This document shows, piece after piece, positions 34,311 to 34,410 of a DNA stretch of 64,000 nt. Source of the DNA: a virus (lineage: Duplodnaviria > Caudoviricetes). Below the pieces are notes generated by a model. It made no database searches. It was given only the letters and a program-made list of their open reading frames with translations, and had not been told where the DNA came from. How positions within the stretch are numbered: position 1 is the stretch's first letter; the number at the start of each line of letters is the position of its first letter. The stretch is from the IMG/VR virus record IMGVR_UViG_3300034126_000020, positions 96,001 to 160,000 of that record; one strand, given 5' to 3'. Both the position numbers and the translations under genes were made by a program.

Positions 34311-34410
34311 TGGCGTTCACTGCTGGGCTGTACCCAGACCCCCTGAGCGACCTACCCTTGTCCGGTTGACCCGCAGGCGACCGAGGATAAGCTGCCAATG
34401 GGCAGTGAAC
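34311..34410 (-). ncRNA. CCA-ended non-canonical tRNA-like RNA
   Basis: 8-bp GTTCACTG/CAGTGAAC stem plus G-CCA; adjacent CTGGG-TACAG-CCCAG arm. Confidence 0.6.

Follow-up and report, generated by a model that had tools for sequence, protein, structure and literature searches.

Judged from its conservation in related genomes, the 100-nt element located between the genes for tRNA-Gln and tRNA-Asn of this phage is a real, conserved non-coding RNA gene of the phage tRNA operon. It represents a new sequence family within a known, unexplained kind of molecules, the small RNAs of tRNA clusters that have tRNA-like ends. The window (the whole stretch of 64,000 nucleotides analyzed here) covers bases 96001-160000 of an IMG/VR phage genome that is 276,810 bp long and carries direct terminal repeats; its nearest named relative is the Pseudomonas aeruginosa phage pPa_SNUABM_DT01 (72% identity across a 532-residue baseplate-type protein). 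A 644-residue ORF of the genome is homologous to the nuclear-shell protein gp054 of phiKZ (E 2e-19, 24% identity), and the phage is therefore very probably a nucleus-forming jumbo phage. A single minus-strand cluster inside the window holds every tRNA gene of the phage genome, and the five canonical tRNAs within it (Tyr, Asp, Gln, Asn and His; 33966-34957) all encode their CCA. The small RNA fills the last 100 nt of the gap between Gln and Asn, on the tRNA strand (Table 1).

Table 1. Coordinates of the small RNA, its parts and its genomic neighbors (window positions unless indicated; position p of the RNA lies at window coordinate 34411-p)
Feature	Position	Strand	Basis
tRNA-Tyr	34957-34870	(-)	tRNA cluster
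tRNA-Asp	34696-34620	(-)	tRNA cluster
tRNA-Gln(UUG), upstream tRNA neighbor of the small RNA	34614-34540	(-)	tRNA cluster
Whole tRNA-like small RNA gene, 100 nt	34311..34410	(-)	fold, homologues, consensus structure, covariance model
5' strand of the 8-bp acceptor-like stem, GUUCACUG, RNA 1-8	34403..34410	(-)	pairs with 34315-34322
Type I-F repeat-like segment, GUUCACUGCC-CAUU-GGCAGCUUA, first 24 nt, possible alternative local hairpin	34387..34410	(-)	Rfam CRISPR-DR4
Body, 64-nt long irregular hairpin	34339..34402	(-)	fold and consensus
Side hairpin, CUGGG-UACAG-CCCAG, RNA 74-88, in T-arm position without T-loop	34323..34337	(-)	fold and consensus
3' strand of the acceptor-like stem, CAGUGAAC, RNA 89-96	34315..34322	(-)	fold and consensus
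Discriminator G97 and encoded CCA, RNA 98-100 (CCA = 34313-34311)	34311..34314	(-)	sequence
Single-base spacer (U) from CCA to tRNA-Asn	34310	(-)	sequence, ARAGORN
tRNA-Asn(GUU), downstream neighbor of the small RNA	34309-34234	(-)	ARAGORN
tRNA-shaped gene with a hairpin within the anticodon loop	34229-34115	(-)	Rfam tRNA, 48-52 bits
tRNA-His	34038-33966	(-)	tRNA cluster
Nuclear-shell homologue	genome 164771-166384, ~4.8 kb past the window end	(-)	similarity to phiKZ gp054

The overall fold is a three-way junction made of the terminal stem, the body hairpin and the short side hairpin. With a minimum free energy of -46.8 kcal/mol for the window RNA (z = -3.4 against dinucleotide shuffles) and z scores of -5.0, -2.6 and -4.4 for three relatives, this fold exceeds chance. 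A reading of this DNA from its sequence alone had described an 8-bp acceptor-like stem with a G discriminator and an encoded CCA, a 5-bp arm with a TACAG loop, a 7-bp TTATCCT/AGGGTAG helix capped by CGGT/ACCG and a 3' end 1 nt before tRNA-Asn, with neither the GG of a D-loop nor a 7-nt anticodon loop. All of these were found in the window RNA, on the minus strand. The arm is the side hairpin, which can also be drawn with a sixth U-G pair leaving an ACA loop (5-6 bp overall), and the UUAUCCU/AGGGUAG helix, continued by CGGU/ACCG with a UGCG loop on top, belongs to the body, in which a conserved bulged basal helix is joined by a middle helix that covaries, a GA.. bulge of 4 nt and a tip that differs between the genomes. 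ARAGORN places the start of tRNA-Asn directly after the single-base spacer. The side hairpin is joined without a gap to the terminal stem's 3' strand. The 5' strand of that stem continues into the body helix (CCC/GGG) with zero unpaired bases, so that stacking of the acceptor on the T-type arm, the 8/5 stack proposed earlier, is only one of two possible coaxial arrangements.

Homologues were found, one copy each, in three related phage genomes of ~260-277 kb, always at the same Gln/Asn junction and directly before an identical tRNA-Asn (this tRNA is 100% identical across all four genomes). Two of the relatives, the ~276-kb IMG/VR genomes L002 and L003, were reached via the protein adjoining the tRNA cluster, and the third, a 258-kb contig (L126, RCUO01000014.1), was the sole addition from a metagenome pattern scan. 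A covariance model (R1) detected a single copy per genome and no second copy anywhere in the four genomes. In IMG/VR, a 19-mer scan recovered L002 and L003 alone and a 14-mer scan gave, besides these two, chance matches only. Along these lines, blastn of the element with its upstream neighbor against 50,697 phage records returned only chance matches of 24-28 nt, and the search of 185,579 prokaryote genomes, IMG/VR and the 50,697 phage records produced no further members. After these scans (IMG/VR, phage records, prokaryote genomes and metagenomes) the family is known from four genomes only. The covariance model did not find the 100-nt RNA in pPa_SNUABM_DT01, whose cluster has only Asn and Asp, so that the RNA is dispensable for this type of phage.

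The homology and covariation search that the sequence-only reading had proposed thus brought three syntenic homologues, and with them compensatory changes. The RNAalifold consensus comprises 36 pairs held in the four sequences, with 99.3% of the cells being standard pairs; both sides had changed in 6 pairs and in none of the pairs of any slid-register control. At the second pair of the terminal stem (2:71; alignment 2:97), the window and L003 have U-A where L002 and L126 have C-G, and the middle helix of the body shows the exchanges G-C/A-U, C-G/U-A and G-U/U-A/A-U. The basal region is near-invariant, its variable columns all being either unpaired or G-C to G-U, and the side hairpin is invariant in the four genomes except for the central base of its loop (C/U). 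With only four, fairly close sequences, the covariation is suggestive of the fold and statistically not strong. The frequent G-U pairs would become A-C mismatches on the opposite strand, which indicates that the selected molecule is the RNA of the tRNA strand. The doubt that the stem or the CCA might not be conserved in related phages was addressed at the same time: the stem is kept with a compensatory change and the CCA is encoded in three of the four genomes. The homologues and their compensatory changes support the idea of a separate RNA gene that is conserved and ends in CCA, the acceptor end being tRNA-like and the body not.

As a neutral yardstick we have used the four-fold degenerate sites of the adjacent 280-residue gene, which are 66-77% identical between genomes. 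Identity amounts to 88-96% at the two ends of the RNA (alignment columns 1-20 and 62-98) and, among L002, L003 and L126, to 88-95% in its middle. As measured against this yardstick, the RNA sequence is shown to be under purifying selection. The middle of the window RNA is only 42-47% identical to that of L002, L003 and L126, well under the neutral figure, and by this comparison the apical domain of the window keeps the architecture but has, in effect, another sequence. In both versions a 4-nt GA.. bulge sits on the 3' side, together with one short helix, a small internal loop, the GCC helix and a cap, the latter being a UGCG tetraloop in the window vs. a 7-nt CCUUCAA loop in the relatives. These data also bear on the possibility of a decayed tRNA gene or a palindromic mobile element acting at the DNA level, in either case without RNA function. 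The terminal inverted repeats would fit such an origin, as would the adjacent 123-nt hairpin element, which behaves like a GUUG-flanked insertion/deletion, but there is a single copy per genome, no similarity to tRNA models is detectable, and the strand-specific G-U pairs, compensatory changes and above-neutral conservation point to an RNA, so that this explanation would be most surprising.

We compared the element with the known tRNA-like classes. Rfam, at gathering and permissive thresholds, gave no fitting family for the window, the 2.1-kb cluster or the element alone, and likewise for L003 and L126. The tRNA models (Rfam RF00005 and ARAGORN) had no match over 34311-34410, even with E up to 10 and a 111-nt search. 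The acceptor end is tRNA-like (an 8-bp stem followed by G and CCA, the stem being conserved and the CCA present in three of four genomes). There is no D-loop and no cloverleaf, the body being one long hairpin; the loop of the side hairpin has 3-5 nt and no T-loop motif, and the 7-nt loop of the relatives has a C at the expected U33 position. Bacterial tRNA-Sec combines the 8/5 geometry with a D-stem of 6 bp, UCA in the anticodon loop and a variable arm that is long; it was rejected, as only the 8-bp stem, G73 and the 5-bp adjoining hairpin are present. The Rfam tRNA-Sec model has no match on the element and the anticodon arm is absent, in agreement with the earlier remark that the likeness to tRNA-Sec lies in the 8/5 geometry and not in the sequence.

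A tmRNA was rejected as well. The G3-U70 pair and the reading frame of tmRNA, already noted as missing by the sequence-only reading, are indeed absent, pair 3:70 being U-A in the four genomes; the RF00023 model has no match on the element and matches the T-arms of neighboring genes only, and ARAGORN finds no tmRNA. In topology the tRNA-like domain of tmRNA is similar: it too has an acceptor stem and an NCCA end, a long helix that departs from the junction stands in for the anticodon/D region, and a 3' hairpin lies against the 3' strand of the acceptor. However, tmRNA has G3-U70, a T-loop, a reading frame and pseudoknots, all absent from the 100-nt RNA, and SmpB was not found in the phage. In mascRNA and bacterial YrlA, a tRNA-like module recruits tRNA-processing enzymes to a non-tRNA transcript, and a tRNA-like module on a non-tRNA transcript is also what the 100-nt RNA has in common with them. 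The Rfam mascRNA and YrlA models gave sub-threshold matches to true tRNAs of the cluster only. The Y-RNA-like YrlA is defined by T- and D-loops in its tRNA-like domain, by a stem for Ro binding and by a Ro/TROVE partner; membership was rejected with no YrlA match on the element and no Ro/TROVE found in a search of the phage.

The 3' end reads GCCA in the window and L003, ACCA in L126 and ACA in L002 (a one-base deletion), the discriminator being G in two genomes and A in the other two; as far as these four sequences tell, the CCA is not inviolable and the discriminator is not fixed among relatives. The discriminator (N73) and pair 2:71 are positions commonly read by synthetases. This is pertinent to the proposal, made from the sequence alone, of an aminoacylatable tRNA mimic, in which a host synthetase would charge the CCA end via identity elements of the acceptor stem for a non-ribosomal or regulatory role. 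Minihelices are charged by some synthetases, and the 8-bp stem, discriminator and CCA with an abutting helix have the geometry of a minihelix, with the CCA encoded in three of four genomes. Past this geometry the proposal found no support. Both the discriminator (G/A) and pair 2:71 (U-A/C-G) vary among close relatives, L002 has ACA in place of CCA, and G3-U70, G-1, an anticodon and a T-loop are all absent. The stack, if formed, would have 13-14 bp, whereas EF-Tu expects a stack of 12 bp, and neither a CCA-adding enzyme nor SmpB was found when the phage genome was searched for them. Charging thus seems quite improbable. Were the RNA to carry an amino acid, its importance would rise considerably.

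Taking architecture and setting together, we think that the element probably gives rise to a stable RNA of ~100 nt released by tRNA-processing enzymes, with the top half serving as a handle for processing and stability and the body as the working part. Acceptor/T minihelices are substrates of RNase P and of the CCA enzyme, and the packing among tRNAs together with the 8-bp stem, its NCCA tail and the abutting helix make the element a plausible substrate for host tRNA maturation. An acceptor/T-type minihelix would be formed by the terminal stem with its NCCA tail and the hairpin next to it, and host RNase P would cut at G1; the RNase P cut at the 5' end of tRNA-Asn would then leave the CCA plus one U, a single nucleotide for an exonuclease to trim. 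The CCA-adding enzyme could repair the CCA end (for example the ACA variant), and the operon would in this way yield the stable RNA in tRNA-like amounts. The conserved body hairpin, with its bulged basal helix, GA.. bulge and apical domain, would most likely be a surface for protein binding or a decoy, and under this reading the RNA does not decode codons. The location on the tRNA strand, 1 nt from tRNA-Asn, speaks in favor of release by tRNA processing. So does the situation in L003, where the RNA starts 9 nt past the CCA of tRNA-Gln, a gap that corresponds to tRNA-operon spacing. On the other hand, without a T-loop in the side hairpin RNase P would lack its elbow contacts, the body helix could take the place of the side hairpin as stacking partner of the terminal stem, one C of the CCA is lost in L002 and the nearest named phage, pPa_SNUABM_DT01, does without the RNA.

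An alternative role would be that of a structured spacer or insulator, folding on itself so that the neighboring pre-tRNAs fold and are processed correctly, with no function in trans and degradation after its release. The operon being a mosaic of self-contained hairpin elements that are gained and lost between relatives, the absence of the element from the nearest named phage and the replacement of the body tip in the window by a plain UNCG-capped hairpin would all agree with this. Nevertheless, the element sits at the same junction in the four genomes, unlike the other inserts, its sequence, besides its pairing, is conserved well over the neutral proxy, and an insulator would need neither a discriminator nor a CCA, all of which makes an insulator unlikely.

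The nearest known counterparts are RNAC and RNAD of phage T4 (species 1 and 2 RNAs), whose function is unknown (PMC3014915, PMC9697503). Like them, the 100-nt RNA is a structured non-tRNA RNA gene in a phage tRNA operon, on the same strand and tightly packed. The T4 molecules are small stable RNAs found among phage tRNA genes on the tRNA strand, and rnaC, in the T4 tRNA cluster, has a tRNA-type T-arm adjoining its 3' end. The sizes differ (139 and 119 nt vs. 100 nt here), and the T4 RNAC has a canonical T-arm (GGUUCGAAUCC) and is annotated as a gene without an encoded CCA, just the reverse of the 100-nt RNA. Covariance model R1 had no match in the T4 tRNA region, and there is no sequence similarity to RNAC or RNAD. 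Transcriptome work on the giant phage 201phi2-1 likewise reports a small RNA that lies directly upstream of a tRNA (PMC11512511). It has long been known that phage tRNA clusters hold extra small RNAs, and the roles of T4 RNAC and RNAD are still unexplained. The 100-nt RNA provides a clean and compact example, in which the fold is conserved, the ends are tRNA-like and the apical domain is exchangeable, and would be a tractable model to find out whether such RNAs are protein decoys, anti-defense factors or processing aids. It would also show how far the borrowed tRNA-maturation machinery reaches for products that are not tRNAs.

One anti-defense role can be discussed in more specific terms, since the best Rfam match on the element alone was CRISPR-DR4, the type I-F repeat (14.1 bits, E 1.7, with a gathering threshold of 35). 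Unrelated Rfam families reach equal scores on the homologues and the match is at noise level. Sequences of I-F repeats are given in the supplement of the RNA anti-CRISPR paper (PMC10651486). In the window only, both flanks of the I-F repeat recur exactly, as GUUCACUGCC and GGCAGCUUA, and 19/28 repeat positions match in two blocks. Solitary repeat units of phages bind Cas6f, with the C-G pair at the stem's foot being essential (PMC10651486). In the 100-nt RNA this pair (C6-G) is kept in the four genomes and the 5-bp hairpin is intact in three of them, while the main fold is 8.5-12.5 kcal/mol more stable. A CRISPR-repeat mimic could be envisaged, in which the first 19-24 nt would fold into an I-F-like hairpin during transcription and be bound by host Cas6f, the operon giving high expression and an exact 5' end.

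Besides the flanks and the stem-base pair, the CUGCC/GGCAG complementarity of 5 bp, which the main fold does not need, and the P. aeruginosa host of the nearest named relative could be quoted in favor of such a mimic. Against it stand the Rfam score at noise level and the missing CRISPR match in L003 and L126, a broken U-A pair of the hairpin in L003, a loop of 4 nt and not 5, the unconserved 5'-handle part and the better main fold. No array with the CAUU-loop variant was found in 185,579 genomes, in which 11 single matches are at chance level. Nucleus-forming phages are already shielded from DNA-targeting CRISPR, and a phage encoding a homologue of the phiKZ nuclear shell would have little need to block a DNA-targeting system. 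A mimic of this kind is thus very unlikely, though binding of Cas6f, if true, would make the RNA considerably more important. Csy4/Cas6f was sought in the phage genome and not found. The scan of viral contigs for an I-F hairpin closed by a terminal stem gave 36 matches, the known relative included; the others were read as chance, lacking I-F flanks, an NCCA tail and any likeness to the RNA.

The 100-nt RNA is like the RNA anti-CRISPRs (Racr; Camara-Wilpert et al. 2023, PMC10651486) in being a small phage-encoded RNA, and its first 24 nt have a likeness to a type I-F repeat, stem-base C-G pair included. Unlike the 100-nt RNA, solitary repeat units are near-full-length copies of a repeat: the supplement rows compared here are 93-100% identical to one (PMC10651486). 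Membership was rejected with 19/28 positions matching and no match in L003 or L126; moreover, the loop is one base shorter, the similarity decays in relatives and the dominant fold buries the hairpin. A cloverleaf-like alternative (a 5-bp stem, the I-F-like hairpin as "D arm", the body arm and the side hairpin) fits the covariation with one broken pair in L003. It was rejected as the main fold, being 8.5-12.5 kcal/mol less stable, and could possibly exist as a transient state. From here one can conceive a two-state decoy, in which the first 19 nt of the nascent RNA would fold into an I-F repeat hairpin and capture Cas6f (an exact 5' end being made by RNase P) and the escapees would settle into the stable tRNA-like fold. 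This is highly improbable, but such an RNA, if real, would be without precedent among RNA anti-CRISPRs in using a tRNA scaffold, here moreover in a nucleus-forming phage, where it might count against RNA-targeting systems relying on borrowed I-F crRNAs.

The rest of the operon presents several features of its own. The phage tRNA set includes all four GUN-anticodon tRNAs. The tRNA-shaped gene downstream of tRNA-Asn has a hairpin of 30-43 nt inside the anticodon loop (window 34115-34229; L002:7916-8027; L003:7832-7940; L126:6743-6854 (-)); its triplet 34-36 is UCA in the window, where the three relatives have UUC. The gene has a mismatch at pair 1:72, and its 3' end is ACCC, not CCA. Upstream of the 100-nt RNA, at window positions 34415-34537 (-), a long stem closes an RNA of 123 nt (z = -4.6). 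The window shares this RNA with L002 and L126, whereas it is cleanly missing from L003, where the gap from tRNA-Gln to the 100-nt RNA is just UGUUGUAUA. This element is flanked by GUUG on either side, in the manner of an insertion/deletion, and its 3' end, AUAAACC, is located shortly before G1 of the 100-nt RNA. AUAAACC recalls the 5' handle of type I-E crRNA, which we take to be probably chance. In pPa_SNUABM_DT01, an unannotated element of ~80 nt lies directly after a small CDS (L127:2264-2345; MW735835.1 ~171763-171844). It was missed by Rfam and by the annotation of MW735835.1 and has a 7-bp acceptor-like stem (GAGGACG/CGUCCUC), a canonical T-arm (GUGGGUUCAAUUCCCAC) and an aberrant middle.

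The operon as a whole is a mosaic of inserts that differ between relatives. A structured spacer of 173 nt between Tyr and Asp (34697-34869 (-)) is private to the window, a 234-nt insert between Asp and Gln (L002:7291-7524) is private to L002, and L003 has a 198-nt insert 3' of Asn (L003:7633-7830). The inserts of L002 and L003 each contain a perfect T-arm (GCGGGUUCGAGUCCCGC and GUGCGGUUCGAUCCCGCAU, respectively), yet they are not called as tRNAs, and they may be further tRNA-like small RNAs.
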